Assembly (NCBI GenBank): GCA_963706575.1 | Contig: CAVPNL010000006.1 | Location: 672,001 to 736,000, forward strand | Reading direction: 5' to 3' | DNA: 64,000 nt | Source of the DNA: an uncultured delta proteobacterium | GTDB lineage: Bacteria; Desulfobacterota; Desulfobacteria; Desulfobacterales; JAHEIW01 | Shown: positions 7,134-38,365 of the stretch, in pieces | How the letters are laid out: every line of letters starts with the position of its first letter | Position numbering within the stretch: the stretch's first letter is position 1 | The notes under the pieces: generated by a model | What the model saw: the letters and a program-made list of their open reading frames with translations, nothing else | What the model was told of the DNA's origin: nothing | Database searches by the model: none | Translations under genes and position numbers: made by a program

Positions 7134-7661
7134 ATGAATCGCAAAGGCTTACTGCTAATTTATACAGGCGAAGGCAAGGGAAAGACCACCGCGGCTTTAG
7201 GATTGGCGCTCAGAGCGGCCGGGCAGGGGCTGAACGTGCTTATTCTGCAGTTTATGAAACGCAATAAAAAAATTGGTGAATTCAAAGCGTTGGTCAAGGC
7301 CGGACTCCCCATCACCATGCGACAGTATGGACGGCGGGTTTTTTTCCGTACGAGGACCTGCGAGCCTATGGATATTTATCGGGCGCATCAGGGCCTTGAG
7401 GCTTTCAAAATAGCGATGAAAGACAATGCCTACGATCTCATCGTTCTGGATGAGATCAATATGGCGGTTCATTACGGTTTATTGAGTATTGCAGAAGTCG
7501 TCGCCGCAATTGAGCAAAAGCCCCCGGAACTGCATCTGGTGCTGACCGGCCGGAATGCGAATCAAAAGCTAATTGATATGGCCAACCTCGTAACTGAAAT
7601 GCGCGAAATAAAGCATCCTTACCACCAGGGGGTCTATGCCCAACGCGGAATCGAATTTTAG
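7134..7661 (+). CDS. cobO: Cob(I)alamin adenosyltransferase, CobO/BtuR family (copy 1)
   Basis: YTGEGKGKTTAALGLALRA, QFMK, LDEI, LTGR, LVTEM..IKHPY..G...GIEF. GGAG upstream of ATG 7134. Confidence 0.9.
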   Translation: MNRKGLLLIYTGEGKGKTTAALGLALRAAGQGLNVLILQFMKRNKKIGEFKALVKAGLPITMRQYGRRVFFRTRTCEPMDIYRAHQGLEAFKIAMKDNAYDLIVLDEINMAVHYGLLSIAEVVAAIEQKPPELHLVLTGRNANQKLIDMANLVTEMREIKHPYHQGVYAQRGIEF

Positions 7662-7739
7662 AAGCGTTCTGTTGGGCTTATCCGTCATTTTATGGATGTA
7701 ATAAAATGCCTCTTGAAAATTTAAGGAGTACAGAAACCA

Positions 7740-8501
7740 ATGGGTACTTTAGGAATTTTAACCTGTGAGATTCTGGAACTGGAATTTGCCAGGCTTTTGG
7801 CTGCGGACAAAGAAGTGAACCGCATTACGGTTCTTGAAGATGAACGCTCTGCTAACTTTATTGCAGCGCTTGAATCCATAAAAAAAGACAACTTAAAACG
7901 AATCACCAGCTTCAAGGCATTTACCCCTGCCGCCGAAAGCCCGCTGGAAGTCCTGGTTGGTGTTTTGGAGTTGGCTTTGCACAATCGCAAACACACCCTT
8001 CAACAGGGTTTAATTGAGGCCGCAGCTACAATTGGGCCCCATGTAGATGCCCTGATGCTCGGATATGGTTTGTGCGGTAACGCATTGGAAAACCCTCAAG
8101 AACTGCTCTCCGATGCCGGTGTGCCCATTTTTATCCCCATGGATGAGGATCATCCGGTTGATGATTGTATCGGTCTGCTCATCGGCGGGCGCGAACGGTA
8201 TTACGAAGAACAATGTGAGGTAGCGGGCACGTTTTTTATGATACCGGGCTGGACATACCACTGGAAGCGCATGTTTGAGCAGGAGTTTGGCAACCTGAGC
8301 CATGAAATGGCCAAACGGCTATTCAAAAATTACGAACGGTCACTTTTGATTTCGACGCCCATTATGTCCCTTGCAGACATGCAAAAAAATTCAAAAGCCT
8401 TTAATGAGTTGTTCGGTCTGCGTACCGATGTTTGCAACGGCACCCTCAGCATTCTCCAGAAGACCTGGGATACGGCTAAAGCACACTTGAATTCAACTTG
8501 A
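7740..8501 (+). CDS. DUF1638-like protein (accessory of corrinoid methyltransferase loci)
   Basis: LTCEIL, LELALH, LGYGLCGN, DDCIGLLIGG, GTFF..PGW. AAGGAG RBS. Confidence 0.75.
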   Translation: MGTLGILTCEILELEFARLLAADKEVNRITVLEDERSANFIAALESIKKDNLKRITSFKAFTPAAESPLEVLVGVLELALHNRKHTLQQGLIEAAATIGPHVDALMLGYGLCGNALENPQELLSDAGVPIFIPMDEDHPVDDCIGLLIGGRERYYEEQCEVAGTFFMIPGWTYHWKRMFEQEFGNLSHEMAKRLFKNYERSLLISTPIMSLADMQKNSKAFNELFGLRTDVCNGTLSILQKTWDTAKAHLNST

Positions 8502-8803
8502 AGTGGTTTCAAAATCTCAGATCAGGTTCCCCGCTTTAACGCGGGATTGCACGTCTTTATTTTAACAAATTAATGTGTGCATCAAGGGCTAAAAGTGCCT
8601 GAAGTAAACTAAAGCTTGGGCCTCACGCAAAGCCGCAAAAAAACACGCGCGCAAAGACCCGAAGGTTTTTTTATTGTTTAAACTAAAATTCTTTGCGGCT
8701 TAGCGGCTTTGCGTGAACAAGAAATTAAAATGGACAGAATTCCACTTTGCATCGATCGAAAAGACCCCTCTGTAAGCTCCCCCAACGCCTGGCCTCTTGA
8801 TAA

Positions 8804-8844
8804 AACCATCTTTTTTATGTAAAAAAATCAACTATTAGACGATT
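8804..8844. promoter_or_regulatory. Operator-like site: half-site plus palindrome AATCAACT-ATT-AGACGATT
   Basis: Palindrome 8826-8844 with half-site AACCATCT 22 bp upstream. Same architecture at 15222-15262 and 22830-22870. Confidence 0.65.
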
Positions 8845-8904
8845 TTCATATTTCAGACGGTCGTGTAAAAATTTAAAACGATAATTTAATGTCTCGGAAT
8901 TTCT

Positions 8905-9861
8905 ATGCCTGACGAAACCCAAACTAAGCGTTTTATATATCCGACCCAGGGCGTTTGCCCCCCTGAGATTCATTTTAAACTCGATAACGGCATTCTTGAG
9001 GAAATCCGTTTTGTGGGGGGTGGCTGTCCGGGTAACGCTCAGCTGGTGGCGCGTCTTTTAGAAGGAAAGCCGCTGGCAGAGGCCCTGGAATACCTCGTCG
9101 GAATTGATTGCCGCAATGGAACCTCCTGCCCCGCTCAGCTGGCTGCTGCCGTTACCGCCGCTAAAAATGGCAACCTGACGCCCGCCGAATCTTTTCGGGT
9201 TCATGCTGACACTTCCAACAGATGCCGGATCGGCCTTATCAGTTCCATCGAAGGCAATTCCGTTATTTTGCAAAAACTCATGCAACACATGCAAGCCAGT
9301 GGAATAGACGCCTGCTATTGCCTCGGCAGCCTGACGGGGGATTGTGCTCATAACAAAGATTTGATTCAGAATATACGGAAACACAACATTTTTGCGATTC
9401 AGGGGGAAGGCGACTGGTGCTATGCCCAGGGTCAAGAAAAAAAGAACATGCCGCCACTCGAACAAAAGGACAGGGATTGGCTGTTGCGCTTGCCTCAGGT
9501 ACTGAGTTTTCAAATGGAACATAAAAAAGGATTTGTCTTTTTCGGCGATTATATTCAGTCACTTCCTGATTATTCTGACTTTGAACCCTTTGCCCTGGAA
9601 ATGAATATGGTGTGCGGGTTGACCCATTTCATGCAGGATGAAACCGTTTTTCCGGCCCTGGAGGCCATGATACCCCAATTTCGAGCCGATATTATTATTT
9701 TTGGCCAGCTCAAACGCTGGGGTCATTGGCATATTGCCGGCAAGGATTTCATCAGTCTCGGGCCTGCATCGGACGCAAAGGGGCTATCCTGGGGTCAGCT
9801 GGAAGTGGCTGATGAAAAGATCGAATTTAAGATCATGCAGGCTGAATACGAAGGAGGATGA
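8905..9861 (+). CDS. TSCPD-domain (TIGR03905-like) protein fused to a degenerate metallophosphoesterase domain
   Basis: N-terminal GVC...FVGGGCPGN...GIDC...TSCPAQLA. C-terminal part has ISSIEGN, CLGSL and IQGEGD in place of the usual ISDIHGN, CLGDL and GNHD. Confidence 0.7.
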   Translation: MPDETQTKRFIYPTQGVCPPEIHFKLDNGILEEIRFVGGGCPGNAQLVARLLEGKPLAEALEYLVGIDCRNGTSCPAQLAAAVTAAKNGNLTPAESFRVHADTSNRCRIGLISSIEGNSVILQKLMQHMQASGIDACYCLGSLTGDCAHNKDLIQNIRKHNIFAIQGEGDWCYAQGQEKKNMPPLEQKDRDWLLRLPQVLSFQMEHKKGFVFFGDYIQSLPDYSDFEPFALEMNMVCGLTHFMQDETVFPALEAMIPQFRADIIIFGQLKRWGHWHIAGKDFISLGPASDAKGLSWGQLEVADEKIEFKIMQAEYEGG

Positions 9862-9862: not shown

Positions 9863-10159
9863 TTGACCCAACCCGTTTTGGTGGATGTGCTTTTGACTGA
9901 TTTTCGGCAATGAGTTGCCTGCGTCTATATGGCGGAGTCGGTAAAGGTTTTACCGCAAGACATCCAGGAAATTATCGAAGTGCATGAATGGGATATGCGC
10001 ACCCGAGAAGGGGTGGTGCGCTTTCGGGAACTGAAGGCCAAGTCCCTGCCCAGCGTTGCTTTAGACGGCGACCTGGTTTATGAATCCCTTATCCCCATGC
10101 AGGAAGAACTCATCGACGAAATCCGCAGACGTTATAAGGAAAAGAATCAGAATGAATAA
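9863..10159 (+). CDS. Thioredoxin-like selenoprotein, UxxC (UVAC); TGA 9911-9913 read as Sec17; 98 aa
   Basis: GGAGG 9853-9857 precedes TTG 9863. In-frame TQPVLVDVLLTDFRQ-TGA-VACVYMAESV aligns with DVLTLDSVQ-CAACGYMMESI of 29258-29659. Hairpin follows. Confidence 0.85.
9939..9955 (+). other. Candidate bacterial SECIS hairpin
   Basis: Perfect 7-bp stem CGGTAAA-GGT-TTTACCG. Loop starts 32 nt after the UGA. Confidence 0.7.
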
Positions 10160-11141
10160 TATCTATCTGGAAGATGTTAACATTGAAGGCTTTAAATCCT
10201 TTTCAGAAGAAACCAACATGAGCTTTCAGCCCGGCATCGGCGTTATTATTGGAAATAACGGCGTCGGAAAATCGAATATCCTGGATGCGATTGTCTGGGC
10301 GCTGGGCGAAAATGATCTGGACCGCATCCGTTGTTATGAAAAAGAAGAGTTGTTTTTTGCCGGCAGCAAAGACTATCCGCCGGCACCCAAAATTCGGGTG
10401 GAGTTGATGCTAAAGCAGGGAGAAGAAAAAGACGCACCCGGCATCCAATTGGCCCGTGAGAGAAACAAAAATGGGGACGATCAATACTGGATTGATAAAA
10501 CCAGCTATGCACGCCAAGCCTATCGTGAAAAATTAGATGCCTATAATCTCAGGCATTGTCTGGCAACCATCATCCGGCAGGAACAAATTAATGACATGAT
10601 TCAGCTCGATCCCTGGCAGCGGTTTGACGGCATCCGGCAAGTGCTGGGCCTTGATTCCGAAGAAGAAACCGTTGGATGCCTCAAAGATATCATTGGTCCC
10701 TTATTTCAGCGCTATATGTCTTATCTGATACCGCTTGGTGACGTCGAGCTGGATGTGATTTCAAAAGATGGGCACAGGGGATTGGAGATCGAAGTCAACC
10801 TTCCGGGCAATCGCCTGCGCAGGGCCCATCAATTGTCCGGCGGCGAAAAATCCATTACCAGTCTGGCGCTGAAGCTGGCGATTTTCCACCAACTTGAAAG
10901 CCCTTTTTTTCTGCTGGATGAAGTGGAGCCCTCCCTGGACTATACCAACCACAAGTCGATGCAGACCTTTCTCAAAGACGTGGCCGACAGCAAACAGCTG
11001 ATCATGATTACTCACCTTAGAAGCACCATCGCTCTGGCCAATACGGTGCACGGCGTGAGAACCCGCTGGGATGGATCTTCGTTCATGAAATTTTATTTTG
11101 TGATGGACGAGCGTTTGTTGAGGCTTTATAAGTGCTGCTAA
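10152..11141 (+). CDS. Short SMC/RecN-like ABC ATPase (head domains only), C-terminal Cys-Cys; 329 aa
   Basis: GFKSF, GNNGVGKSNILDAI, LSGGEKS, FFLLDEVE, LIMITH; ends RLYKCC. ATG 10152 overlaps the end of the upstream gene. Confidence 0.8.
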   Translation: MNNIYLEDVNIEGFKSFSEETNMSFQPGIGVIIGNNGVGKSNILDAIVWALGENDLDRIRCYEKEELFFAGSKDYPPAPKIRVELMLKQGEEKDAPGIQLARERNKNGDDQYWIDKTSYARQAYREKLDAYNLRHCLATIIRQEQINDMIQLDPWQRFDGIRQVLGLDSEEETVGCLKDIIGPLFQRYMSYLIPLGDVELDVISKDGHRGLEIEVNLPGNRLRRAHQLSGGEKSITSLALKLAIFHQLESPFFLLDEVEPSLDYTNHKSMQTFLKDVADSKQLIMITHLRSTIALANTVHGVRTRWDGSSFMKFYFVMDERLLRLYKCC

Positions 11142-11142: not shown

Positions 11143-11886
11143 ATGATTGCGATCAGCGACCTCGATACGGCTATCCATAAGGCCAGGCCTATGCTGGAAA
11201 GCCTGCAGCGCTTATATCAGCGCTTGCCGCAGACCGGCTGCCAATGTGAGCAACCGGGTGTATGCTGTGCATTTTTGCCGGAAATGACATGGATGGAAGC
11301 CGTCCAATGGGCCGGGCTCATCCAGGCAATGCCTGCCGGTGACCGCACGAAGATTCTGCAAAAGTTTTTGGAATTTTATCTGACAAATCCCATTCGTCCT
11401 GCCGGATGTCCTTTCCTGGAAGATGGCGCCTGCACTATTTATGAATTGCGCCCTTTTGCCTGCCGCGCCTATGGTCTGTGGAGCCCCGAATTCGGTAAAG
11501 TCAGAACCCAAAAAAGCCGGCAGGATCGAAAAGCGTTGCTGCAAATGTGGCAAAAATTCGGGCTGGAGCTTCCCCCGCAGACGGTGGAATCTGAAATCGA
11601 TTATTGTGATCGGGTTCGTTGCGCAGCTGAAAAATCGATGTCTGACAGTCAACTCATGGATATCTTGCAGCAGATATATGAACTCGATCAAGCCTTAGCG
11701 GAGCTGCAAACCAGATTTGAAGCTGAATATCATTCCGACTTTAGTTTTTTGATTGCGTCCCTGGCTCTGGGCTATCGCAAAGCAGTCCTCGGGAAATTTG
11801 CCGTTATCAAGGAAATGGTTCAGCAGGGAACCACAGAGCGGCTTGAGCAAATGCTGGGCAAGGCAACTGCAGAGGTGCTTGGTTAA
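11143..11886 (+). CDS. YkgJ-like cysteine cluster (CxxCxxCC family) protein
   Basis: CQCEQPGVCC and CPFL...CTIYELRPFACR. Confidence 0.8.
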   Translation: MIAISDLDTAIHKARPMLESLQRLYQRLPQTGCQCEQPGVCCAFLPEMTWMEAVQWAGLIQAMPAGDRTKILQKFLEFYLTNPIRPAGCPFLEDGACTIYELRPFACRAYGLWSPEFGKVRTQKSRQDRKALLQMWQKFGLELPPQTVESEIDYCDRVRCAAEKSMSDSQLMDILQQIYELDQALAELQTRFEAEYHSDFSFLIASLALGYRKAVLGKFAVIKEMVQQGTTERLEQMLGKATAEVLG

Positions 11887-12101: not shown

Positions 12102-13112
12102 TTAAGAAGTTTCAACTATGCAGCGGTTTAATTCTTTGAGCGTTTCATCCGCATTTATTTTCCATCCGATAAAGGCCAGCCGGGTTTCAGCTTCACCTTC
12201 CCATGGGGACCATTCGCTTTTGCCGCCGACAAAATTGAGCATTTCCAAGCGATCCACAAAACGAACCGGGCCTTTAATTCGAAATAATTCCCAGGGTAAA
12301 TTGGTGATAAATTTTTTAAAGCAAGCCTCGTCGAAAATTCTTGAATCATGGAAAGAAAATGTCACAAAGTTAATAGACTTAGCCGGATGGCTGTCGTGTT
12401 CTTCGGGAGAATGATGATGGTCGCTTGAATCAGGTTTGGCGTTTAAAGCCGCAGGCTGGAAAAATTGAATCGGCTTTAATCCAAATATTTTTGGTTGAGC
12501 CTGTGCCCAAAGGGTTTCCGGATCGATTCCGCAGTGAATTGTTGGCACCACCTGGCAGTCGGGTATGACGTCATGGATTTCGGCAAGAAACTGCGGAATT
12601 TTTTCTGCGGCCATTAAATCAATTTTATTTAAAAGGATTAAATTGGCCATTTCAAGCTGGTTGTAAAAAAGCTGTCCGAATACTTCGCGCGCCCCCCAGA
12701 TATCTGCCTCCAACACCGTAATAATTTTTTTAAGTTGCATGTGTTGACCGATCTGCGGATCCTGCAAAACCGTTGTAATCGATTTGGGGTCGGCTACGCC
12801 TGAGGCTTCTATTAAAATACGGCGGGGTTTGAATCGCTTCCAGATGCGCGTCAGCGATTGATGCAAGTCGGCGCTGAGCGTGCAGCAGATGCATCCACTG
12901 GTCAGCTCGATCACGTCAGAACCGCTATCTTTAAGCAAGGCACCATCGATGCCGATGTCGCCAAACTCATTGACCAGGACAACTGTTTCGGAGAGGTCGG
13001 CTTGCCAGGAAAGAATTCTTTTGAGCAGGGTGGTTTTACCCGCCCCCAAAAAGCCCGACAAAAGTAAAATGTCGGCTTTATATTCCGGCTGATTGCCAAG
13101 TGGTGCGCTCAT
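12102..13112 (-). CDS. COG0523/CobW-family P-loop GTPase (metallochaperone)
   Basis: SGFLGAGKTT, VNEFG, GCICC, EASG, NKID, short His-rich linker, RIKG. Confidence 0.9.
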   Translation of the reverse strand: MSAPLGNQPEYKADILLLSGFLGAGKTTLLKRILSWQADLSETVVLVNEFGDIGIDGALLKDSGSDVIELTSGCICCTLSADLHQSLTRIWKRFKPRRILIEASGVADPKSITTVLQDPQIGQHMQLKKIITVLEADIWGAREVFGQLFYNQLEMANLILLNKIDLMAAEKIPQFLAEIHDVIPDCQVVPTIHCGIDPETLWAQAQPKIFGLKPIQFFQPAALNAKPDSSDHHHSPEEHDSHPAKSINFVTFSFHDSRIFDEACFKKFITNLPWELFRIKGPVRFVDRLEMLNFVGGKSEWSPWEGEAETRLAFIGWKINADETLKELNRCIVETS

Positions 13113-15122: not shown

Positions 15123-15221
15123 GCTATCGCCTCCATACCTTAATAATGCACTCAATTTTCCGATCAAATTTTTCTCATACCGTATAACCGATGTCAATGC
15201 ATTCGATTTTATTGTTTATAA

Positions 15222-30386: not shown

Positions 30387-30632
30387 ATGAAAATCGAAGT
30401 TTTAGGGCCCGGATGCAAGCGCTGTGATCAACTCTATGAAAACACCCAAAATGCGGTGGCCGAATTGGATACCCCGGGGCCGATCGAAATTGTAAAAATC
30501 GGGGATATCAATTACTTTGCCAAAATGGGGGTGTTCATGACACCGGGGCTTGTGATTGATGGAGAGGTGGTTTCAACCGGCAAGGTGCTCAGCCCCGATC
30601 AAATCAAGCAAAAGATTGCGGAGAAGATGTAA
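30387..30632 (+). CDS. Small thioredoxin-family protein (MTH895-like)
   Basis: IEVLGPGCKRC...GVFMTPGLVIDG.VVSTGKV. Confidence 0.88.
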   Translation: MKIEVLGPGCKRCDQLYENTQNAVAELDTPGPIEIVKIGDINYFAKMGVFMTPGLVIDGEVVSTGKVLSPDQIKQKIAEKM

Positions 30633-30635
30633 AGC

Positions 30636-31670
30636 ATGTCGGATGTCACCCGCGTATATTTGATTACCGGTTTTTTAGGCAGCGGTAAAACCACCTTGCT
30701 GAATCGCATTATTCAGCGCTTCCCCAAAGATAAAAAGCTGACACTGCTGGTTAACGAATTCGGTGAAGTCGGTGTGGATGGTACTCTGGTCGAAGGCGAA
30801 GACATCGATATGATGGAAATCAGCAAAGGTTCCATTTTCTGCGTCTGCGTTAAAACCGATTTTATAAAAGGTCTATACGAGCTCAACAGCAAAGTCCAGC
30901 CCGATGTGATGCTGATTGAATCAACGGGTGTGGCCAACCCCTCAGACTTAAAAAAAGATTTAAAACTGCCCATCTTCAATGACCGATTTCATTTCGTGGA
31001 GCAGTTTTGCGTGATCGATGCGGCCCACTTTTTGGATGCATACGGCGTCTATGCCTCTTTAGAAAAACAGATTGCTTCTTCCACCGTATTTATCATTAAT
31101 AAGATTGATACCGCCTCACCTGAAACAATTGAAGAGACTAAAAATGTCATTCGGCAGTTTCATCCCGATCCATTTTTTTACGACACCACCTATGCCGACA
31201 TCCCGCTGGCGGATTTTTTTGATTTAGCAGAACTGGATTTGCCCGATTCCGAAGTGCCGGAACCTAAAAAGGCAAAAGTGTCGGTTCTTTCGGAGGAAGC
31301 GCTTGACCAATTTATTGATGACCTCCTGGATAGCCCGGATCTTGAAATTACGCCACCGGACACGCTCATGTCCGTTACCTATAGCTGGAACGGAGACGAT
31401 CTGGAGCAGGTTAGAGCTATGGCCGAGGCTTTACCCCCTGCTGTAGTCAGGGCCAAGGGGTTTGTCGAAGAAAAAGGTGACATGTATTTGTTCAATTATG
31501 TCATGGGCGATTGGACCGTTGAAAAAACCAATGTGCCCAAGGATCGCATCCAAAACAAAAATATTGTTGTTTTTATTGGGCCGCCTGAATCTATGGAAGG
31601 AATCGAAGGGGCATCCAAAACAGGTGATTGGACCGGCAGAGGGGTATTTCAACCTTACTCGCAAACTTGA
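30636..31670 (+). CDS. COG0523/CobW-family GTPase
   Basis: TGFLGSGKTT, VNEFG, GSIFCVC, ESTG, NKID, RAKG. Confidence 0.88.
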   Translation: MSDVTRVYLITGFLGSGKTTLLNRIIQRFPKDKKLTLLVNEFGEVGVDGTLVEGEDIDMMEISKGSIFCVCVKTDFIKGLYELNSKVQPDVMLIESTGVANPSDLKKDLKLPIFNDRFHFVEQFCVIDAAHFLDAYGVYASLEKQIASSTVFIINKIDTASPETIEETKNVIRQFHPDPFFYDTTYADIPLADFFDLAELDLPDSEVPEPKKAKVSVLSEEALDQFIDDLLDSPDLEITPPDTLMSVTYSWNGDDLEQVRAMAEALPPAVVRAKGFVEEKGDMYLFNYVMGDWTVEKTNVPKDRIQNKNIVVFIGPPESMEGIEGASKTGDWTGRGVFQPYSQT

Positions 31671-31901
31671 AAAAACAGCAACTTAAATTTATTTGAAACC
31701 ACTTCTTTAGTTACAAAATGATCGTCACTCCCGCGCAGGCGGGAGTCCAGTTCAAAGCCGCTTGGATTCCCGCCTGCGCGGGAATGACCAGTGGGGAACA
31801 CACATCAGTATTTAATATTATTTTTGACAATATTTCTGGGACACAACATTAGGAATCAGCGGCCAGCGGCTATTGAATTCCATGATGATAAAGGTCTAAA
31901 A

Positions 31902-32834
31902 ATGTCTGAAAACGGAAACCACTATGATTTAATGATTTTGGGTGCAGGGCCCGCCGGCATCACCGCCGCTTTATACGGGCAACGGCTGGGATTGAAAACG
32001 ATTGTTTTTGGCGACATACCGGGCGGCAGCTCATATATGATCGAACATCTGGCCAATTTCCCCGGACTTATGGAGGGGACTTCCGGCACCCAGTTCGGCA
32101 CGATGGCATTCCAGCAGGCCCAGAAAGAAGGTACTAACTTCACATTGACCCGTTTGGAAAGCCTCAGCCATAATGAAAACCGCTTTGTCGGTGTCGATGT
32201 CGATGGAAAAGAATATACGGCTCTCAGCGCCCTTGTTGCTACCGGGCGGGTGCCCAAAAGATTGGCGGTTGCCAATGCCAATATGAAAGGTGTTCATTTT
32301 TGTTCAATTTGTGATGGCCCTTTATACAGAGGGAAAAATGCCACACTGGCGGTGGTCGGCAGCGATAATACCGCCGCCCAGCATGCGCTCACCCTGGCAC
32401 GGACTGCCGATAAAGTTCTGCTCATCTGTCGCAGTGATACCCTTAAAATGGATGCCGTTCATAAAGACCAGATCCAGCAGCAAAACAATATTGCGTTGAT
32501 GACAAACACGGAAGTATCCGGGTACAACGGCCAGGAGTTCGTCGAAAGTATTGCGGTTGCAGGTAAGGAAAAGGGGCGACAGGATCTGGCGGTTGATGGG
32601 ATTTTCCTGGCAATCGGATGGCGACCCAACATATCGGCACTAAAATTGGAGGTTCAAAAAACGGCAGAGGGCTATTTGGAAACGAATGAAAAACTCATGA
32701 CGTCGTTTCCCGGACTTTTCGCAGCGGGTGACATACGGGATACCGATATGTGGCAGGTGCTGACCGCCTGTGCCGACGGGGCCAGGGCGGCCAAATATGC
32801 AGCCGAATATTTGGAAAAATTAACCCAAGTTTAG
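31902..32834 (+). CDS. trxB: Thioredoxin-disulfide reductase
   Basis: GAGPAG.TAALY, ATG, HFCSICDG, GLFAAGD. Start ATG 31902. Confidence 0.85.
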   Translation: MSENGNHYDLMILGAGPAGITAALYGQRLGLKTIVFGDIPGGSSYMIEHLANFPGLMEGTSGTQFGTMAFQQAQKEGTNFTLTRLESLSHNENRFVGVDVDGKEYTALSALVATGRVPKRLAVANANMKGVHFCSICDGPLYRGKNATLAVVGSDNTAAQHALTLARTADKVLLICRSDTLKMDAVHKDQIQQQNNIALMTNTEVSGYNGQEFVESIAVAGKEKGRQDLAVDGIFLAIGWRPNISALKLEVQKTAEGYLETNEKLMTSFPGLFAAGDIRDTDMWQVLTACADGARAAKYAAEYLEKLTQV

Positions 32835-33340
32835 AATTTTTGTTCCCGGATGCCGGAGTAAACCGCCTTACAAATGCCCGATACGCCGCCTTGCAATCCT
32901 TCCGGATTTTTAAATCCTTCTGTACCCTTTAGGCTCTCGATGTACGCGTGTGCATCAGCCAATACCTGCCAGGCCGCCTGCTTAGCGGCATCCATGTTTA
33001 TTCGGAACAACCACCCTTTTTCGTATGGATCTTCTGAAGCGAGTGAAGGGTTTTGTTTTACTTCTGGATTAAAAAAGGCAATCCCGCTAACCGGGGTTGC
33101 GATATATAAAATTTTGCCTGTAATCACAAACACCACATCCTGCCCCGCTTGAACGGACGCTTCATCCTGGACCAGCCAGTCCAGGTCATTGACGCCGCCG
33201 GCTAAAACCAGAGCGGGTTGCGTCAGGCCGAAAACAAGATCCTGATCTTGCGCTTTGGCCCATAAACCCTGTTTTGAATGATATCTTCGGTCTTCAGGGA
33301 TCTCAACGCGTTGACCTAAAAATTTTTCAATTACCGCCAT
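32831..33340 (-). CDS. Glycine cleavage H-like (lipoyl-carrier fold) protein, divergent
   Basis: IPEDRRY, W, GLT, TPVSG, N...NP....DPYEKGWLF. GGAGGT RBS before ATG 33340. Confidence 0.75.
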   Translation of the reverse strand: MAVIEKFLGQRVEIPEDRRYHSKQGLWAKAQDQDLVFGLTQPALVLAGGVNDLDWLVQDEASVQAGQDVVFVITGKILYIATPVSGIAFFNPEVKQNPSLASEDPYEKGWLFRINMDAAKQAAWQVLADAHAYIESLKGTEGFKNPEGLQGGVSGICKAVYSGIREQKF

Positions 33341-33520
33341 TACTACCTCCATTCTAAGATTTCAGAAAATCGACACCGATAAATCCTACCTTCAGCTTTA
33401 ATACAAAAAATGTCAAGAAGTTGGGATCACAATTTTTTTAAAAATCATCTTTAGGTCTATTGACCGCATCCCAAAATTAGTATTATACAATGTAAAATAG
33501 TTTATCAATGAAAGGGATGG

Positions 33521-33946
33521 ATGATGCCGCGGATTGATCAGGATTGCCCCTGTACCGGAAAAAATATGAAGCATTTTGCCGCACCCTGGATTCTACTGAC
33601 ATTGGTCAATCATGAAGGTGCGCATGGCTACAAAATCAAAAAGATCATGAACCAGTTCACGCAAGATTTGGGAATTCCGTTGAACATCACCGGCCTTTAT
33701 CGGCACCTAAACGGCCTGGAGAAACGCGGCGTCCTTTACTCCAAATGGGATTCTCAGGGCAAAGGTCCGGCCAAGCGTAAATATTATTTGACCGAATCGG
33801 GTAAAGAATGTCTGCGCTACTGGATGCGCACCTTAAGCATGCAGTCGCTTCTTATCGGCAGATTTTTCGACCAGGCGAAAAAGGTTTTTCCTTCCATGCG
33901 GATGCCGACGATCCGGTTTGAAAGCCGGTCCAATTGCCTGGATTAA
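33521..33946 (+). CDS. PadR-family transcriptional regulator
   Basis: HGY.I, LYRHL..LEKRG...S.W, GPAKRKYYLTESG. Confidence 0.85.
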   Translation: MMPRIDQDCPCTGKNMKHFAAPWILLTLVNHEGAHGYKIKKIMNQFTQDLGIPLNITGLYRHLNGLEKRGVLYSKWDSQGKGPAKRKYYLTESGKECLRYWMRTLSMQSLLIGRFFDQAKKVFPSMRMPTIRFESRSNCLD

Positions 33947-34006
33947 CAACACCAACGAATGTTTCAATCTAGCTTCACTCACGAATCAAAGGCAGGAGGT
34001 AACACC

Positions 34007-35152
34007 ATGTGTCCCGCTAAAGCGATTTCAGTCAACAAACCCGTAAAGCTCATCTTTGCCGGCGGTTTCTTGGGCTCCGGCAAAACAACGGCGCTGGCAT
34101 CCCTGGCAAAACGCTTGATTCAGCGCGACATGCGGGTCGGTTTCATCACCAACGATCAGAGTGAAAATCTGGTCGATACGGTTATCGTTCGACAGATGCT
34201 CACCGAGCTGGGGGTACCGGTAGAAGAAGTGGTCAAAGGCTGCTTTTGCTGCAAATTTGATGAATTGATCGAGCACGTTGAAAAAATTCTGGTCCATGAT
34301 CCCGATGTTCTCATGGGAGAACCGGTGGGCAGCTGTACCGATTTTGTGGCCGCGGTGGCCAATCCGATCAAAATTCAATACAAGGATGCCTTCCGTTTTG
34401 CGCCGTTTTCGATAATGGTGGACCCGGGCCGGGTGCGGGAACTCATGCTGCAAGAAAGCGAATCAGAATTCCCCGAGGATGTGGCCTATCTCTTCCGCAA
34501 GCAAATGGAAGAGGCAGACACCATTGTGCTCAACAAAATCGATCTTATTGCCCCGGGCGAATCGGATCGCCTGCTTTCTGCGATTGGGGAAACATTTAAA
34601 GATAAAAAATTGATGGCCGTCTCTGCCAAAGCAGGTACCGGGATGGAGGAGTGGCTTGACGACCTTCTTTCTGGACGGCCGGGCGCAAATACGGTGTTGC
34701 GGCAGATTGATTATGACCGTTATGCGCACGCGGAGGCCGTTTTGGGCTGGTTGAATGCCGCCGTATTCATGTCTGCGCCAGAATCGTTTGACGCTTCTAA
34801 TTTTGCGCGAAAATTGCTGATGGAATTGCGAGAGGCCTTTAAGCAAAGAAAGGGTGAAATTGGGCACCTGAAGATTGTTATTACCAGTGCCGGGAAATCT
34901 CTTTGGGCCAATCTGACCCATCTGGCAGCCGAGCCCAGCATCAGTGGTGAGACCCTGGATGCCTTGTCAAAGGCGGCACTCATTATCAATGCGCGGGTCA
35001 GGCTTGAACCCGAAGATTTAGAAGCGACGGTGCGTGATGTTCTTAACGCGGTTTCCGGGGGCATGGGTGTTAAATCTGAAATCGACGATCTTCAATGTTT
35101 CAGTCCGGCCTATCCTGACCCGCCGCATGTGATACGCGAATCACTTGAATAA
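34007..35152 (+). CDS. COG0523/CobW-like GTPase
   Basis: GGFLGSGKTT, TNDQ, GCFCC, EPVGSCTD, NKID, GHLK. GGAGGT RBS before ATG 34007. Confidence 0.85.
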   Translation: MCPAKAISVNKPVKLIFAGGFLGSGKTTALASLAKRLIQRDMRVGFITNDQSENLVDTVIVRQMLTELGVPVEEVVKGCFCCKFDELIEHVEKILVHDPDVLMGEPVGSCTDFVAAVANPIKIQYKDAFRFAPFSIMVDPGRVRELMLQESESEFPEDVAYLFRKQMEEADTIVLNKIDLIAPGESDRLLSAIGETFKDKKLMAVSAKAGTGMEEWLDDLLSGRPGANTVLRQIDYDRYAHAEAVLGWLNAAVFMSAPESFDASNFARKLLMELREAFKQRKGEIGHLKIVITSAGKSLWANLTHLAAEPSISGETLDALSKAALIINARVRLEPEDLEATVRDVLNAVSGGMGVKSEIDDLQCFSPAYPDPPHVIRESLE

Positions 35153-35159
35153 CGAAGAT

Positions 35160-35362
35160 TAGAAGTGGTATCAAAACCCCATCTAAGGCCCAATGGCTGC
35201 GTTGCCCCGCTAAGCGGGATTCGCATCTGATTCTTAAAATTAAGGTGCAGCACAGGCCTCCGGTAAATGCTCACATACTCATGTATGCTGAGAACAACGA
35301 CTTTCCCGATCGGCCTGACGCCTTGCCCTTGAACCTGATCTGAGGTTTTGAAACCACTTCTA
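35160..35362. mobile_element. MITE-like element with terminal inverted repeats TAGAAGTGGT(A/T)TCAAAACC
   Basis: Both ends are inverted copies. A shorter inverted copy lies at 60192-60337. No transposase in the window. Confidence 0.65.
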
Positions 35363-35384
35363 GTCATATGAATAGAGGTGGATC

Positions 35385-35636
35385 ATGTTGCGCATAGAAG
35401 TCATCGGACTCGAGCCTCCCTGCCAAAAATGCAATGAGCTTCTCGAAAATGCCAAAAAAGCGGCTAAGGATGCCGGGGTGGATGCCGAGGTGGTTAAGCT
35501 TTGGACCCTTTCAGAAGATGTTCGCCAAAAATATGGCTTGCTACTCAGTCCGGCGCTGGTCATTGAAGGTGTCGTCGTTGCCCAGGGAAAAGTATATAAA
35601 CCGGAGCGAATCGCCGGATTACTCCAAGGTGCGTGA
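35385..35636 (+). CDS. Small thioredoxin-family protein
   Basis: IEVIG..PPCQKC...YGLLLSPALVIEG.VV..GKV. Confidence 0.85.
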   Translation: MLRIEVIGLEPPCQKCNELLENAKKAAKDAGVDAEVVKLWTLSEDVRQKYGLLLSPALVIEGVVVAQGKVYKPERIAGLLQGA

Positions 35637-36556
35637 AAGTAATTCAAATTGGTGCTCACCTATCGATATTTCTTAAAGATTCTGTTATGAAACAACGATT
35701 GGGAATATACTTTGGAGAATTTTTCGGGACATTCCTGCTGGTTTTTTTCGGAATTTCGGCGGTGGCTGTAGCCGTCTTGTTCGATGCCATATCCAGTATC
35801 GTTCAAATTTCCATTGTCTGGGGTATCGGGGTGACCCTCGCCATTTATGCGACACGCCATTTATCATGTGCCCATTTGAATCCGGCGGTGTCTCTGGGAA
35901 TGGTATTGGCTGGACGAATGCATCCACGTCTGTTAATCCCATATTGGATTTTCCAACTATGTGGGGCGATAGCAGCCGGAGCGTGTTTACTACTTGTCTT
36001 TCATACGTCTATTTCCAGTTATGAAACAGCAAACGCTATCAGCCGAGGCACGCTTTCATCCCTAAAAACGGCGATGCTGTTCGGTGAATATTTTCCTAAT
36101 CCCGGATTCTCCTTTCCCTGGTTTGGCGTGAGCAGGGGAACCGCGATGATTGTCGAAGGATTGGGAACTTTCATTCTGGTTACAATGATATTTTTGTTGA
36201 CCGAAGGCTGCAACGTTGGACGCCCAGGTGAAGTTTTAGCACCCATTTTTATAGGGGCCACCGTATCTGCGCTTATTGCCGTTACGGCACCGCTGACTCA
36301 AACCGGAATCAATCCGGCTAGAGATTTCGGGCCTCGGTTAGTCGCCTATTTTGCCGGCTGGGACAGAATTGCAATTCCAGGCCCTCAAAACGGTTTTTTT
36401 TGGGTTTATATTTTTGCACCGCTGATCGGCGGAAGCAGTGCCGCCGGTTTTTTTCGCTTTATTCTGGCTCCTTTGATGACTGCCAAAAACCGGGAACTGG
36501 AATGCAGTTGTGACAATTGTGGTGATGCGTCGGATAATCAGTCGGGAGCAAATTGA
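35633..36556 (+). CDS. MIP-family channel (aquaglyceroporin-like); start GTG 35633 or ATG 35687
   Basis: GEFFGT, HLNPAVS and INPARDFGPR. C-terminal CSCDNC. Confidence 0.9.
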   Translation: MKVIQIGAHLSIFLKDSVMKQRLGIYFGEFFGTFLLVFFGISAVAVAVLFDAISSIVQISIVWGIGVTLAIYATRHLSCAHLNPAVSLGMVLAGRMHPRLLIPYWIFQLCGAIAAGACLLLVFHTSISSYETANAISRGTLSSLKTAMLFGEYFPNPGFSFPWFGVSRGTAMIVEGLGTFILVTMIFLLTEGCNVGRPGEVLAPIFIGATVSALIAVTAPLTQTGINPARDFGPRLVAYFAGWDRIAIPGPQNGFFWVYIFAPLIGGSSAAGFFRFILAPLMTAKNRELECSCDNCGDASDNQSGAN

Positions 36557-36606: not shown

Positions 36607-36888
36607 ATGGCATTGACGGATAAAGACTGGTACCAGAAGGGTATAAAGCTGAAGCAAAAAGGCCATTATCAAAAAGCCATCCAAGCATTTGATCGGGTCA
36701 TTGATCATAAAATCAAATTGGCCGAAGCCTATTTCGAAAGGGGAGTATGTTTTTATAAACTGGGTAATAACCGACAGGCCACAGACGATCTGGCGGCCGC
36801 CGCCATGCTGGGTTGTGAGGCCGCCAAATTTTGGAGCAAGTACGATAGAAACAAGATTAAGAAATCAAATGAAGATAACGAATCCTAA
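36607..36888 (+). CDS. Small TPR protein
   Basis: WYQKG...G.YQKAI.AFD, AEAYFERG...YKLG...A..D. Confidence 0.7.
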   Translation: MALTDKDWYQKGIKLKQKGHYQKAIQAFDRVIDHKIKLAEAYFERGVCFYKLGNNRQATDDLAAAAMLGCEAAKFWSKYDRNKIKKSNEDNES

Positions 36889-36890
36889 AT

Positions 36891-37355
36891 TTAAGACTCG
36901 AGGTTTTTTGCAGTTTTATCAAACAGATCGAGCATCCGATCAATCAGATTGATGTTCGATTTGTCAAAATTAACGATTAAATCCACTCCGGCACGATATA
37001 ATTCCCCATGATTTGGCTGTAAGCCGGCACCCCCGGCGACCAGTCGAATATCTGCACCGCCTTCGGTCTGAAGTGCCTCAGCCAGTTGAACAACCAACGA
37101 TTGATTGGTGATATCGACGATGGAGACACACATCATATGGACATCATTGTCAATTGCCAAGCGGGCGGTTTGCAAGGGCGCCTGATTGTTAGGGCCGATA
37201 TCAACGTCAAATCCGAATTCTGCCAGGGAAGCGGCTAACGATTTTGTCCAACGGTCGGACTGATCGCTTTCCAAATGAGCCAGAAGGATGCGCGGCCTTC
37301 TGCCTTCCCGCTGAGCAATTGTACTTATTCTTTTCTCTATTTGCTTGGTGTTCAT
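36891..37355 (-). CDS. Stand-alone methylmalonyl-CoA mutase C-terminal (B12-binding)-like domain lacking the DxHxxG histidine
   Basis: EGRRPRILLA...SDQSDRW...GFDVDIGP...A..AIDNDVH, AGG, AGV. Confidence 0.75.
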   Translation of the reverse strand: MNTKQIEKRISTIAQREGRRPRILLAHLESDQSDRWTKSLAASLAEFGFDVDIGPNNQAPLQTARLAIDNDVHMMCVSIVDITNQSLVVQLAEALQTEGGADIRLVAGGAGLQPNHGELYRAGVDLIVNFDKSNINLIDRMLDLFDKTAKNLES

Positions 37356-37706
37356 GTTCTCACCTGAATTTTCATGCAAGATTTAGGTTGCAATTTATTT
37401 AAAATACCTTCAGATGTCAAACGAATGCCAAGATCCGCAATCCATTCGATAGGGCCGCATTGAAAATCCATGGTGCCTATGATATCTTTCTAGAAATAAA
37501 CGAGGAGTTGAAGATTTTTTACCGTCATGCCCGCGAAGGCGGGCATCCATCATTTTCTGTAGGTATTTCTGGATTCCCGCCTTCGCGGGAATGACAAGTA
37601 TGAAAAGAAAAAAATCCCCGACCTCTGAAATAAATAGAAGCGGCGAATTGATTGTTCGTTTTGAAACCACTTCCAGTAGGTATTGAATTGATATACAGGG
37701 ATCATT

Positions 37707-38063
37707 ATGCCATCGAAACGCAAAGCCAAAATTATCATTGAGGTGATGTACAAAGCAGATTACTGTCTGCCCTGTTTTTATATGGACGAAATGGTTCGAT
37801 CCGTGTTGCCAAACTATGCCGACCGGGTGGAATACCGTCGGGTTGACTTTTTGAAAGGGGATGGTAAAGCGCGCTTTTTGGAGCTCTCTCAGTTTCTTTT
37901 TGGTGAAGAAGGCGTTTACAAGCATTGTCGGCTTGCGCCGGTGCCCTCTCTTTGGATTAATGGAGAATTGTTCTTTGACGCGATTCCGCCCCAATTTGAA
38001 CTGGAAGAGGCCCTAGATGAGGTTCTCGCCGAACACAGAGATATTGAGAAAAAGGAAGAATAA
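37707..38063 (+). CDS. Thioredoxin-like protein, CxxC (CLPC)
   Basis: IEVMYKADYCLPCFYM...APVPSLWINGELFFDAIP. Confidence 0.82.
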   Translation: MPSKRKAKIIIEVMYKADYCLPCFYMDEMVRSVLPNYADRVEYRRVDFLKGDGKARFLELSQFLFGEEGVYKHCRLAPVPSLWINGELFFDAIPPQFELEEALDEVLAEHRDIEKKEE

Positions 38064-38365
38064 TGAATTTGGAAACATCAAAAATTCATCTGGAAGTGTT
38101 TCACGAAGGTGAACACTGAATCCCCTGCGTTTACATGACCCGTGTGGTCGAAACGGTTGCGGCGGAATATGGCGACAGATTGAACTGGGAAAAAATTGTC
38201 ACCAAAGATTTAGCGGGTGCCAAGAGATACCAAAGTTTTTCAAAGTCCCTCGGCAGACCGGCGCCCGTCCCCTGCATTGTCATAGAGGGCGAGCTGGTTT
38301 TTGAAGCCACTCCCAGCACCGAGGAGCTAAAAGCCTGTATCGATCGATATTTAAAAACTTCTTAA
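38063..38365 (+). CDS. Thioredoxin-like selenoprotein, UxxC (UIPC); TGA 38117-38119 read as Sec19; 100 aa
   Basis: ATG 38063 is coupled to the upstream stop (TAATG). MNLETSKIHLEVFHEGEH-TGA-IPCVYM aligns with IEVMYKADY-CLPCFYM of the adjacent paralogue. Confidence 0.85.

Follow-up and report, generated by a model that had tools for sequence, protein, structure and literature searches.

A corrinoid methyl-transfer gene cluster of Desulfobacterota with a predicted MtaA-fold selenoprotein and thioredoxin-like partner at its core

Among the described corrinoid-dependent methyl-transfer systems, the closest in kind to the locus treated here are the mlp gene clusters of type 1 (Mlp1/2/3 with a corrinoid protein plus a Ram/RACE activator), defined by at least one Mlp2 and one Mlp3 clade member (Kountz & Balskus, 2023 preprint), and the Methanococcus voltae/maripaludis system SdmABC, whose locus is reported to be induced by selenium starvation. 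In the available text of these accounts, by whose descriptions the comparison is made, the His-Cys-Cys motif is tied to sulfur and selenium substrates, and ClMlp2 methylates selenide in vitro (Kountz & Balskus). The present analysis concerns a gene cluster at 7134..38365 (~7.1-38.4 kb) of a 64,000-nt stretch of contig CAVPNL010000006.1, from an uncultured delta proteobacterium; this whole stretch is called the window, and all coordinates refer to it. The cluster is a variant of the corrinoid methyl-transfer systems, with an unannotated selenoenzyme (MtaA2U) and a thioredoxin-fold partner (TrxC_b) at its core. An original prediction from the DNA letters had proposed here a complete corrinoid core together with three selenoproteins, six thioredoxin-fold genes, a TrxB reductase, three COG0523 GTPases and a MIP channel, and all of them were recovered in their predicted places when the genes were mapped by greedy calling of open reading frames (ORFs) followed by Pfam and NCBIfam scans (Table 1). 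Literature searches and family libraries matched the cluster to no characterised system.

As in the mlp and Sdm systems, several MtaA-like genes of the uroporphyrinogen decarboxylase (URO-D) superfamily stand with a corrinoid protein and an ATP-dependent activase. The likeness extends to strictly anaerobic hosts, a strong link to genomes that use selenocysteine (Sec), the soft S/Se substrates proposed, and COG0523 neighbours, which have been reported at the Methanococcus and C. botulinum loci (Haas et al., 2009). Unlike the type 1 mlp clusters, described as having no tetrahydrofolate methyltransferase, this cluster has an MtrH; MtaA2U has Phe-Cys-Sec where the Mlps are said to be "invariably His-Cys-Cys"; and the main text of the preprint names no thioredoxin-fold partners, TrxB, in-enzyme selenoproteins, two-component operator, MtrH or Desulfobacterota. 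The mec cassette for dichloromethane (MecA-J) is similar in its kinase and regulator, corrinoid protein, MtaA/CmuA-type and MtrH-type enzymes, RACo, and extra methyltransferases of unclear role. Going by its published description, however, the mec kinase has a PocR sensor, whereas the kinase found here has PAS domains, V4R partners and no PocR match; mec is devoid of Sec, the thioredoxin set and COG0523, and this cluster of a MecJ-like cation transporter. The same literature reports no homologues of Mec proteins above 35% identity outside dichloromethane degraders and three Dehalobacter genomes, and the orthologues of MecE and MecF are described as a clade apart. The bacterial three-component systems (Odm/Vdm/Mtv, MtgABC, MtqABC, CdmBCA) share with this cluster the logic of first enzyme, corrinoid protein, second enzyme and activator, in a similar gene order, but they lack its second MtaA-fold enzyme with Sec and redox partners, and no O- or N-type first enzyme is recognisable here. 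CdmB and the O-demethylases are described as zinc-free or O-type, and "two MtaA" have been reported beside MtaB and MtaC in D. kuznetsovii. The ensemble and its MtaA-fold selenoprotein can rightly be called undescribed, as was claimed of the system, but some of the parts cannot: the HUIPC thioredoxin-like protein is in NCBIfam, the COG0523 neighbours were noted in 2009, and MtaA-like clusters for methyl-selenides have been published.

MtaA2U matches PF01208 (E 6e-41), with the URO-D/MtaA TIM-barrel over its full length, and aligns end to end with Methanosarcina MtaA (4AY7, E 9e-24), the only PDB match found by sequence. With the methanogen enzymes MtaA/MtbA/MtsA it shares the TIM-barrel, the Cys of the HxC motif, the PGC position and a corrinoid-protein partner. 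It differs from them in the zinc site, where the His ligand of HxC is replaced by Phe and the third ligand, the Cys of PGC, by Sec (FFICG ... PGUD); in its need for, or fusion to, a CxxC thioredoxin fold; and in that no coenzyme M (CoM) pathway is implied. Both MtaA-fold enzymes of the cluster, MtaA1 and MtaA2U, remain under the NCBIfam family cut-offs (167.8 and 134.5, respectively, against 235.4 for TIGR01463; 189.3 and 116.5 against 244 for NF004889). When the TGA is read as Sec, MtaA2U extends 33 conserved residues further. Relatives were sought in one genome per species, which gave 113, of which 80 were kept, 68-97% identical to MtaA2U; the labels they carry name Desulfobacterota lineages, or are those of unclassified "delta proteobacterium" or "bacterium" metagenome-assembled genomes (MAGs). 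The Olavius Delta 1 symbiont (L020), Desulfosarcina MAGs and Desulfatitalea alkaliphila M08but (L085), which is in culture, are among the 80. The PG-x-D position in 81 related tblastn matches is TGA in 76 and Cys in one, the motif not being found in four truncated matches. In an alignment of 77 sequences, no variation is seen at C77, H92, C133, H148, C233 or H322; position 312 holds U 76 times and C once, and C236 is kept in 44 only.

A hairpin, AUGUUCC-GGU-GGAACAU, with a 7-bp stem and a GGU loop, begins 16 nt past the MtaA2U UGA. Across 71 distinct orthologue sequences, its six codons are represented by a single codon in 100, 100, 100, 90, 100 and 93% of cases, and the top codon of the degenerate codons flanking it is present in 41-76% of the same sequences. 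Synonymous sites are thus frozen over the hairpin, which argues for an RNA structure laid over the coding sequence. Cys forms of the family also exist (P0005, P0067, P0097, P0121 and the fused enzymes described below). Public annotation cuts the protein at the TGA: 116 of the best 120 matches to MtaA2U stop there, at 311 aa, under automatically assigned names such as "uroporphyrinogen decarboxylase (family protein)" or "MtaA/CmuA family methyltransferase", and for this reason MtaA2U is invisible in present catalogues. Literature searches returned no description of this cluster or of an MtaA-fold selenoprotein. The table of a 2026 selenoprotein review, as available, lists HUIPC, CobW-related and ArsM/DUF2284 selenoproteins and has no MtaA or uroporphyrinogen entry; the accessible text of the Olavius selenoproteome paper lists no MtaA-fold selenoprotein; and in the main texts (as distinct from the supplements) of deep-Sep and BSepDB the words "uroporphyrinogen", "MtaA", "corrinoid" and "cobalamin" have zero occurrences. 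The MtaA-fold enzyme would be an addition to the list of selenoproteins.

The two other predicted selenoproteins, TrxU_a and TrxU_d, are thioredoxin-like. Four of the six thioredoxin-fold genes match NF047660, the HUIPC family, and two match TIGR00412. Like that family, TrxU_d carries H-U-I-P-C, and it alone exceeds the cut-off; the paralogues with CAACGYM, UVACVYM and CLPCFYM all fall below it, the C-terminal part of TrxU_a (scanned as 9929-10159) scoring 25.7. The literature found on the HUIPC family states no function or partner for it. The Sec position is U in 17 of 18 TrxU_a orthologues, and in those of TrxU_d it is U in 21, Cys in five and none in seven; the motif is kept in 70/70 for TrxC_b and 30/34 for TrxC_c, always with Cys. 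The hairpins of TrxU_a and TrxU_d come from single-sequence folds only and are weaker than that of MtaA2U. The in-frame TGA codons stand opposite Cys in homologues and coding is conserved after them; by such comparative criteria the three selenoproteins of the cluster are real. The host genome (5.67 Mb in 25 contigs, 92% complete) contains the Sec machinery on which the prediction depends, with selB (376 bits), selA (605 bits) and selD (380 bits) all above their cut-offs, and a tRNA-Sec; its selD carries an in-frame TGA of its own.

The region is best read as a single system of Desulfobacterota, co-regulated and horizontally mobile. That its genes form a single conserved unit, as had been proposed, is borne out by synteny, a private operator and co-occurrence. 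Synteny was counted in 39 related loci of at least 15 kb, raw counts of which can include paralogue cross-hits. MtaA2U and TrxC_b are adjacent in all 39, and the usual order is V4R-V4R-HK-RR-MtrH-MtaA1-CorP-RACo-DUF2284-MtaA2U-TrxC_b-unk101-Trx3-CobW2-TrxB, followed by a variable downstream part with PadR-CobW3-Trx3-MIP, TPR, a B12 domain and TrxC_c-TrxU_d. In most related loci MtrH is the gene directly upstream of MtaA1, the V4R pair is kept upstream of the kinase gene, the quartet of PadR, COG0523, mini-thioredoxin and MIP genes is adjacent in L030, L031, L050-L053, L071, L072 and L076, and three genes, those of the TSCPD fusion, TrxU_a and the SMC head, directly join the cluster in L063, L071, L072, L083, L090 and L092. 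Identity among loci is ~70-97% for MtaA2U, TrxC_b, the corrinoid protein and RACo.

A palindrome shared by the operons had been noticed in the DNA. This imperfect palindrome of 21 nt (ATCaTCT-ttt-AGAcGAT inside AAAAATCATCTTTTAGACGAT) has its sites upstream of the TSCPD operon, mtrH and MtaA1, and with up to three mismatches these three sites are the sole matches to AAAAATCATCTTTTAGACGAT in the 5.67-Mb genome, against a chance expectation of zero. The operator-like motif recurs in 36 of the 80 related loci, for instance ~300 nt upstream of MtaA2U in L044, L055 and L072, and it lies just upstream of MtaA2U where this gene opens an operon. A weaker operator-like site is found at 33440-33461, by the PadR sub-operon. 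Other palindromes of the region were rejected as operators, being dispersed repeat families (~85 and ~242 copies). Of 401 genomes sampled evenly from the phylum, ten have MtaA2U, nine of them with TGA; the SMC-head ATPase is also present in ten, of which eight have MtaA2U, and the full-length TSCPD fusion in five, all MtaA2U-positive. This patchy distribution points to a transferable accessory system. Many Desulfobacterota from sediments and wetlands, and symbiotic ones too, carry the cluster.

Four RNA libraries, from three studies (sediment, estuary), gave contigs that, filtered at 90% identity, match 22700-32900 at 90-99% in 29-30 of 30 bins, and one contig of 548 nt spans 28943-29490, across the TGA and into TrxC_b. 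These matches show that sequences of relatives are present in RNA libraries. A depth peak over MtaA2U and TrxC_b was discarded as a measure of expression, because strong conservation lets more organisms pass the 90% filter.

The partnership between MtaA2U and TrxC_b is also visible in more distant enzymes. A search of 1.84 billion representatives gave orthologues (at least 60% identity) and then, after a sharp step, relatives at 29-39%. Several of the latter, of 455-539 aa, consist of an MtaA2 enzyme and a C-terminal CxxC-x-YM thioredoxin fold in one chain, with motifs such as CAACTYM (P0128), CAPCQYM (P0130, P0131) and CAACQYM (P0133). The mini-thioredoxin encoded in the cluster after unk101 is of the same type as the third domain of the 539-aa fusion proteins, and P0130 has a mini-thioredoxin-like extra domain. 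Named fused members belong to Sphaerochaetaceae and Thermotogota, and an unfused relative to Chloroflexota. In 63 of 77 fused or related sequences from metagenome loci, F-x-C, PG-C-D and CxxC-x-YM are kept together. A fused metagenome protein of 455 aa, P0155, has lost the F-x-C Cys, the PGC Cys and both CxxC Cys together, as an "all-or-none"-like variant, and the Cys form of L065 has no TrxC_b adjoining.

In a complex model of the Cys-form orthologue P0005 with TrxC_b of the window, scores of 0.75, 0.79 and 0.75 were obtained, against 0.05 for the best of three controls, with contact agreement of at least 88% and partner pLDDT of at least 82. In calibration, the mark was reached by 116 of 157 solved pairs and two of 215 mismatched pairs, counts that are only approximate here since own alignments served as input. 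The confidently modelled interface takes in the whole catalytic barrel face, including enzyme residues 233-235 and 312-313, and on the partner residues 15-19 (with Cys17), 22-23 (Y-M of the motif) and 61-63, so placed that the exposed CxxC Cys of TrxC_b is set, in the model, on the Cys233/Sec312 site. The pass is unlikely to be recall, because no such complex is among the solved structures found by sequence. From the fold, we infer that TrxC_b caps the barrel face where the corrinoid domain must also dock.

The neighbourhood of the fused enzyme was taken from 80 metagenome loci, of which 39 are at least 9 kb long. In these 39, COG0523 is found in 30, the corrinoid protein in 21 and RACo in 12, and a known first methyltransferase lies nearby in 13 (MttB 6, MtbB 4, MtmB 3, MtaB 2), confirmed by Pfam in 12 loci, with Pyl genes in two. 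No MtrH or pterin-binding methyltransferase is found in any of the 80. In L128 and L162 a further URO-D gene stands with a corrinoid protein and the fused enzyme, resembling MtaA1-CorP-MtaA2U. The pairing with COG0523 agrees with Haas et al. (2009), who, in the available text, describe a COG0523 subfamily beside mtaA, mtaB, mtaC and ramM and relate it to zinc-dependent corrinoid methyltransferases. Because the fused family adjoins MttB, MtmB, MtbB or MtaB elsewhere, the methyl-corrinoid protein is probably what the MtaA2 family acts on, regardless of the donor, in the place held in methanogens by the CoM-methylases. The original prediction had the MtaA-fold proteins taking the substrate; MtaA2U, probably working on the corrinoid side, is therefore not by itself a "substrate-taking first enzyme". 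Fusion and steady COG0523 pairing together point to an unrecognised second-methyltransferase module, which several phyla have in their bacterial clusters for methylamine and methanol.

MtaA1 aligns end to end with MtaA (4AY7, E 2e-31) and keeps the zinc ligands (LHICG ... PGCD). Its sequence matches in the PDB are MtaA and two UroD structures, and no CdmB-like entry was returned. It is the variable member of the cluster (45-87% identity among loci), and its soft His-Cys-Cys site fits a thiol or selenol ligand by the criterion of Kountz & Balskus. As the prediction had it, the Pfam scan finds no first enzyme of the MttB/MtaB/MtmB type in the region. The host genome, on the other hand, contains 12 MttB-family matches (one with an in-frame TAG) and two Pyl-type MtbB with TAG (contigs C15, C1, C12, C3), and these TAG-bearing genes mark the host as a methylotroph that uses pyrrolysine, as does the Olavius Delta 1 symbiont. 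At least one host MttB cluster (C15) has its own pterin-binding gene beside its corrinoid protein, and mtrH is present as the sole copy in the host genome (a single tblastn match). MetE has no match in this genome, 92% complete, and the sole Hcy-methyltransferase domain is a stand-alone 334-aa ORF; a split methionine synthase or other housekeeping role for MtaA2U is unlikely because only ten of the 401 sampled genomes have it.

The reading that we favour, with somewhat less than even confidence, is that of a methyl-corrinoid:thiol/selenol transferase working via a Cys/Sec-thioredoxin relay and linking methyl-S/Se compounds to tetrahydrofolate. The system would move methyl groups, in a corrinoid-dependent way, between tetrahydrofolate and soft centres (thiols or selenols), by a standard chain of MtrH (pterin side), corrinoid protein, RACo and MtaA1 with its His-Cys-Cys zinc site, and by a second, highly conserved module that comprises MtaA2U, TrxC_b, the zinc-ribbon protein, a mini-thioredoxin, a COG0523 GTPase and the TrxB-like reductase. 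With a Cys/Sec pair in place of the classical zinc site, MtaA2U would swap the methyl group between the CH3-Co(III)/Co(I) corrinoid protein and a thiol/selenol centre, by Cys233/Sec312. TrxC_b would dock on the corrinoid-protein face, in ping-pong fashion, and resolve or accept the enzyme-bound intermediate, the relay being kept reduced from NADPH by the TrxB-like reductase and the mini-thioredoxin, while the COG0523 GTPases might load or guard metal or thiolate sites. The likeliest flow would start at methylated S/Se compounds and end, by way of methyl-tetrahydrofolate, in oxidation, given a sulfate reducer with MtrH, a His-Cys-Cys MtaA1 and many other methylotrophic genes. MtaA1 would be the variable, substrate-specific entry enzyme, and candidate donors are methanethiol, dimethyl sulfide, their disulfides, methylselenol, and dimethyl selenide or diselenide. 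Oxidised donors (dimethyl disulfide, diselenide) would account for the dedicated reductase set; dimethyl diselenide is reported to be used well by Methanococcus. The neighbouring cobamide supply genes, with three riboswitches, count in favour of this proposal.

Several points weigh against it. The assignment to S/Se comes from ligand chemistry, homology to the CoM-methylases and precedent, and an external methyl-S/Se link may be absent, as the MtaA2 family stands beside methylamine and methanol enzymes elsewhere; 26 of the 39 longer metagenome loci of the fused enzyme have no known first methyltransferase nearby. The MtaA2U module is found in L071, L072 and L092 with no corrinoid protein, RACo or MtrH within 10 kb. 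The MtaA2U site may hold zinc, another metal or none, and the complex was modelled with a stand-in (P0005, 80% identical to MtaA2U) and with own alignments. The RNA-library contigs are compatible with carried-over DNA, and genes cannot be ranked by their depth. V4R sensors, which are most familiar from regulators of aromatic catabolism, would fit methoxy-aromatics.

A bolder form of the thiol/selenol proposal, which we consider unlikely though worth stating, would make MtaA2U and its thioredoxin partner a new kind of corrinoid enzyme, in which Cys/Sec replaces zinc, the intermediate is a disulfide, selenylsulfide or persulfide, and a docked CxxC (UxxC) resolves it. Capture of methanethiol or methylselenol, for example, would first yield a mixed (seleno)disulfide, which leaves well under Co(I) attack, and in other phyla the fused forms would run this chemistry backwards, from sulfide to methanethiol. 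If true, this would supply the missing enzyme for the anaerobic turnover of methanethiol, dimethyl sulfide and methyl-selenides by sulfate reducers, and also the second methyltransferase missing from those bacterial methylamine and methanol systems in which there is no pterin enzyme. The literature search gave no named enzymes for anaerobic dimethyl sulfide or methanethiol breakdown by sulfate reducers, or for bacterial methyl-selenide use in sediments. The cluster is a concrete, testable candidate for anaerobic methyl-S/Se turnover in oxygen-free sediments.

Other explanations must be weighed against a methyl-S/Se pathway. MtaA2U-TrxC_b could be a donor-independent hub, the bacterial counterpart of MtaA/MtbA, passing methyl groups from MttB/MtbB corrinoid proteins to a thiol cofactor or to TrxC_b, so that the cluster would have no special external substrate. 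The fused family with its amine and methanol enzymes in 13 of 39 loci, and never a pterin methyltransferase, speaks for this; so do the many MttB-family and MtbB genes of the host, and the complex model would put the exposed Cys of the partner at the position of the CoM thiol. We nonetheless hold it to be rather improbable, since the cluster has its own corrinoid protein, MtaA1, MtrH, two-component system and private operator, at least one host MttB cluster (C15) has its own pterin-binding gene, MtaA2U is patchy in the phylum, and a methylated protein thiol has no known pathway. The flow could also run in reverse, with methyl-tetrahydrofolate as the drive for methylating a soft metalloid or chalcogenide (As(III), selenide, tellurite products, Hg), so as to detoxify or volatilise it, and thioredoxin/TrxB as reductant. 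Thioredoxin and TrxB serve as reductant for SAM-dependent arsenite methyltransferases. The GlpF-like channel with its Cys-rich tail and the mini-thioredoxins of the MTH895/ArsE family would suit such a role, the Cys/Sec site could bind such elements directly, and ClMlp2 is reported to methylate selenide in vitro; DUF2284, moreover, is fused to ArsM in the known double selenoprotein family NF041536, one such gene lying 3 kb from the L083 cluster. Profile scans find no ArsR, ArsC, Acr3, ArsM or mer genes in the window, however; DUF2284 and DUF1638 also attend unrelated MtaA-like genes, the MtaA2 family occurs in methylamine and methanol clusters elsewhere, and the sensors are of PAS/V4R and not of metal type, all of which makes the reverse direction quite unlikely in our view. 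The gene in question (L083:3016-4395, minus strand, in a Desulfatiglandales MAG) is an ArsM-type SAM methyltransferase-DUF2284 fusion with two in-frame TGAs. Extra DUF2284 copies near the cluster in L030, L031, L054, L069 and L083 (upstream copy) are stand-alone paralogues, those of L030, L069 and L083 adjoining DUF1638, and DUF1638 paralogues adjoin other MtaA-like genes in the same three loci. Of the three elements in the predicted substrate, a methylated S, Se or As compound, S and Se fit the soft site of MtaA1, and the lead to As is weak: DUF2284 is a general accessory, and the arsenic-specific reading based on it was down-weighted with the ArsM fusion confined to L083.

It is less probable still that methoxylated aromatics or methyl halides are the substrates of MtaA1 as first methyltransferase, with MtrH as the second and the V4R proteins sensing an aromatic or hydrophobic substrate. 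The URO-D superfamily includes OdmB/VdmB and, as published, the chloromethane enzyme CdmB, MtrH is described as the second methyltransferase of the mec cassette, and two V4R proteins do lie beside the kinase. Yet MtaA1 keeps His-Cys-Cys, where the O-demethylases, in the account of Kountz & Balskus, swap a Cys for carboxylate or a non-ligand, and CdmB is reported to have no zinc; the PDB sequence search gave only MtaA 4AY7 for MtaA2U and no CdmB-like entry for MtaA1, and the Sec/thioredoxin module would be left with no role. An equally doubtful proposal is a trace-selenium salvage of Sdm type, in which the cluster only frees selenide from methyl-selenides and thioredoxin-like proteins carry it to SelD. 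The published Sdm/Mlp precedent speaks for it, as do a host that uses Sec even in selD, relatives that include the Olavius Delta 1 symbiont, with 57 selenoproteins reported, and the reductive step that dimethyl diselenide would require. But MtrH and a large cobamide supply region suggest flux and not a trace need, the system itself requires three selenoproteins, the 70-97% identity of MtaA2U, TrxC_b and the corrinoid protein across orders would be typical of abundant catabolic enzymes, and the fused family, in its Cys form, is found in lineages and contexts that have no link to selenium.

The remaining features of the cluster are collected in Table 1. The TSCPD fusion, TrxU_a, the SMC head and the CxxCxxCC protein make up one operon, and the main operon extends from MtaA1 to the TrxB-like reductase. 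The three COG0523 GTPases carry the motifs GCICC, CVC and CFCC, and PF02492 matches all of them. The TSCPD fusion gave an AF2 model with pLDDT 81.6 and pTM 0.76, whose top Foldseek match is 3QFN (E 1e-10), and an Atlas score of 0.94 to Metallophos clusters; the usual metal motifs of the metallophosphoesterase fold appear degenerate on our reading of the alignment. The B12/radical-SAM-like gene is not core (3 of 39 long loci), and the DUF6951 gene, an addition to those first listed, recurs in L039, L044, L075, L085 and L096. Family scans gave nothing significant for the zinc-ribbon-like protein.

Table 1. Features of the cluster and of its downstream flank.
Feature	Position (nt)	Strand	Evidence and remarks
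ATP:corrinoid adenosyltransferase (CobA/BtuR)	7095..7661	+	PF02572 E 4e-63; TIGR00708 183.8 > cut-off 167.75
DUF1638 protein	7740..8501	+	PF07796 E 1e-35
Operator-like palindrome, copy 1 (2 mismatches)	8823..8843	+	upstream of TSCPD operon
TSCPD (4-Cys) domain fused to metallophosphoesterase-fold domain	8905..9861	+	PF12637 E 2e-15
TrxU_a, predicted thioredoxin-like selenoprotein (U-VAC-VYM; TGA 9911-9913)	9863..10159	+	NF047660, below cut-off; TTG start behind GGAGGA
SMC/RecF-type ATPase head without coiled coil	10080..11141	+	PF02463 E 2e-44
CxxCxxCC (YkgJ-type) Cys-rich protein	11143..11886	+	PF03692 23.7 bits vs cut-off 23
COG0523 GTPase 1 (GCICC motif)	12102..13112	-	PF02492 E 3e-44; CobW_C
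NuoF-type 4Fe-4S + GltD-like NAD(P)H flavoprotein	13164..15197	-	NF009410 484 bits < cut-off 516
Operator-like palindrome, copy 2 (exact)	15241..15261	+	between GltD-like gene and mtrH
MtrH-family methyl-corrinoid:pterin methyltransferase	15451..16434	+	PF02007 E 2e-42; NF002142 256 < cut-off 287
Two small V4R proteins	16827-17351 and 17352-17954	+	PF02830 30.1 and 20 bits, both < cut-off 31
PAS/HisKA_3 sensor kinase, Cys-rich N-terminus	17923-20181	+	Pfam; 24/39 long loci
LuxR/NarL-type response regulator	20174-20836	+	Pfam; 30/39 long loci
B12-binding/radical-SAM-like protein (weak assignment)	20833..22713	+	Radical_SAM 25.9 < cut-off 29.5
Operator-like palindrome, copy 3 (exact)	22849..22869	+	upstream of MtaA1
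MtaA1, MtaA-fold methyltransferase (H-x-C ... PGCD zinc motif)	22981..24057	+	PF01208 E 6e-49
Corrinoid protein	24096..24767	+	B12-binding + B12-binding_2; TIGR02370 197 < cut-off 215
RACo-type ATP-dependent reductive activator, 2Fe-2S domain	24937..27003	+	PF14574 E 3e-94
DUF6951 Cys-rich protein	27005..27355	+	PF22263, 99 bits
DUF2284 Cys-rich protein	27369..27965	+	PF10050 E 2e-44; start = orthologue-matching Met; 30/39 long loci
MtaA2U, predicted MtaA-fold selenoprotein (F-I-C-G ... APG-U-D)	28196..29230	+	TGA 29129-29131; SECIS-like hairpin 29145-29161
TrxC_b, thioredoxin-like partner of MtaA2U (CAACGYM)	29258..29659	+	NF047660 31.9 < cut-off 105
Small 4-Cys zinc-ribbon-like protein (CPYCGKSDRI ... 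CKFCQN; unk101)	29731..30036	+	28/39 loci, motif conserved
MTH895/ArsE-type mini-thioredoxin (CKRC; Trx3)	30387..30632	+	TIGR00412 83.8 > cut-off 62
COG0523 GTPase 2 (CobW2)	30636..31670	+	PF02492; 36/39 Desulfobacterota loci
TrxB-like low-Mr thioredoxin reductase (CSICDG)	31791..32834	+	Pyr_redox_2; TIGR01292 254.9 < cut-off 343.45
GcvH-related protein	32831..33352	-	NF045810 263 > cut-off 150
PadR	33521-33946	+	first gene of four-gene sub-operon 33521..36556
COG0523 GTPase 3	33959-35152	+	PF02492
Mini-thioredoxin	35385-35639	+	TIGR00412, below cut-off
GlpF-like MIP channel, CSCDNCG tail	35633-36556	+	top PDB match GlpF, 138 bits
TPR protein	36607-36888	+	profile scans, related loci
Stand-alone B12-binding-domain protein	36891-37379	-	profile scans, related loci
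TrxC_c, thioredoxin-like (CLPCFYM)	37707-38063	+	NF047660 74.1, below cut-off
TrxU_d, predicted thioredoxin-like selenoprotein (U-IPC-VYM; TGA 38117-38119)	38063-38365	+	NF047660 152.4 > cut-off 105
Cobamide supply genes	39679-60144		second CobA, CobS, CobU, CobQ, TonB/ExbB/ExbD, TonB-dependent receptor, BtuCDF-like ABC importer, CobT, CbiM/CbiQ/CbiO, DUF4198
Cobalamin riboswitches	48544-48730, 51867-52079, 52394-52590	-, -, +	103, 71, 102 bits

Some gene boundaries probably differ from the called ORFs. The SMC-head ATPase probably starts at ATG 10152, as its orthologues align from residue ~27, and the true start of the TrxB-like reductase is probably near 31899. The ORFs 37410-37994(-), 35110-35367(-) and 35360-35659(-) are probably spurious, since they overlap conserved plus-strand genes and dispersed repeats, and it is these repeat families that create them. 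A repeat of the form GTCAYTCCCGC...GCGGGARTGAC, at 31724-31788 and 37524-37595, has ~85 copies in the genome, and GAAGTGGTTTCAAAA has ~242; dispersed repeats are also found at 8496-8529, 35157-35197, 35325-35365 and 37659-37677.

The GlpF-like channel would be expected to pass small neutral solutes. Beside its second NPA motif it has Ala and Thr, against Gly and Phe in GlpF, at two positions which we take to be selectivity-filter residues. Two orthologues of the SMC-head ATPase in the sampled genomes have in-frame stops (one TGA and one TAG in G065:C18:78889-79941, one TGA in G169:C53:39714-40719), which could reflect recoding, frameshift or decay. Just upstream of the cluster lie DUF169 (COG2043) and a TrkA_N-domain protein (5002-6626, minus strand), and at the end of the cluster a flavoprotein of the Old-Yellow-Enzyme family (432 aa; 38381-39679, minus strand), orthologues of which stand at the cluster edge in L021, L058 and L071. 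The cobamide supply region, with salvage and transport genes, follows directly after the cluster, and all three cobalamin riboswitches lie within it and none within the cluster, upstream of the TonB-dependent receptor, the BtuFCD-like transporter and CobT.

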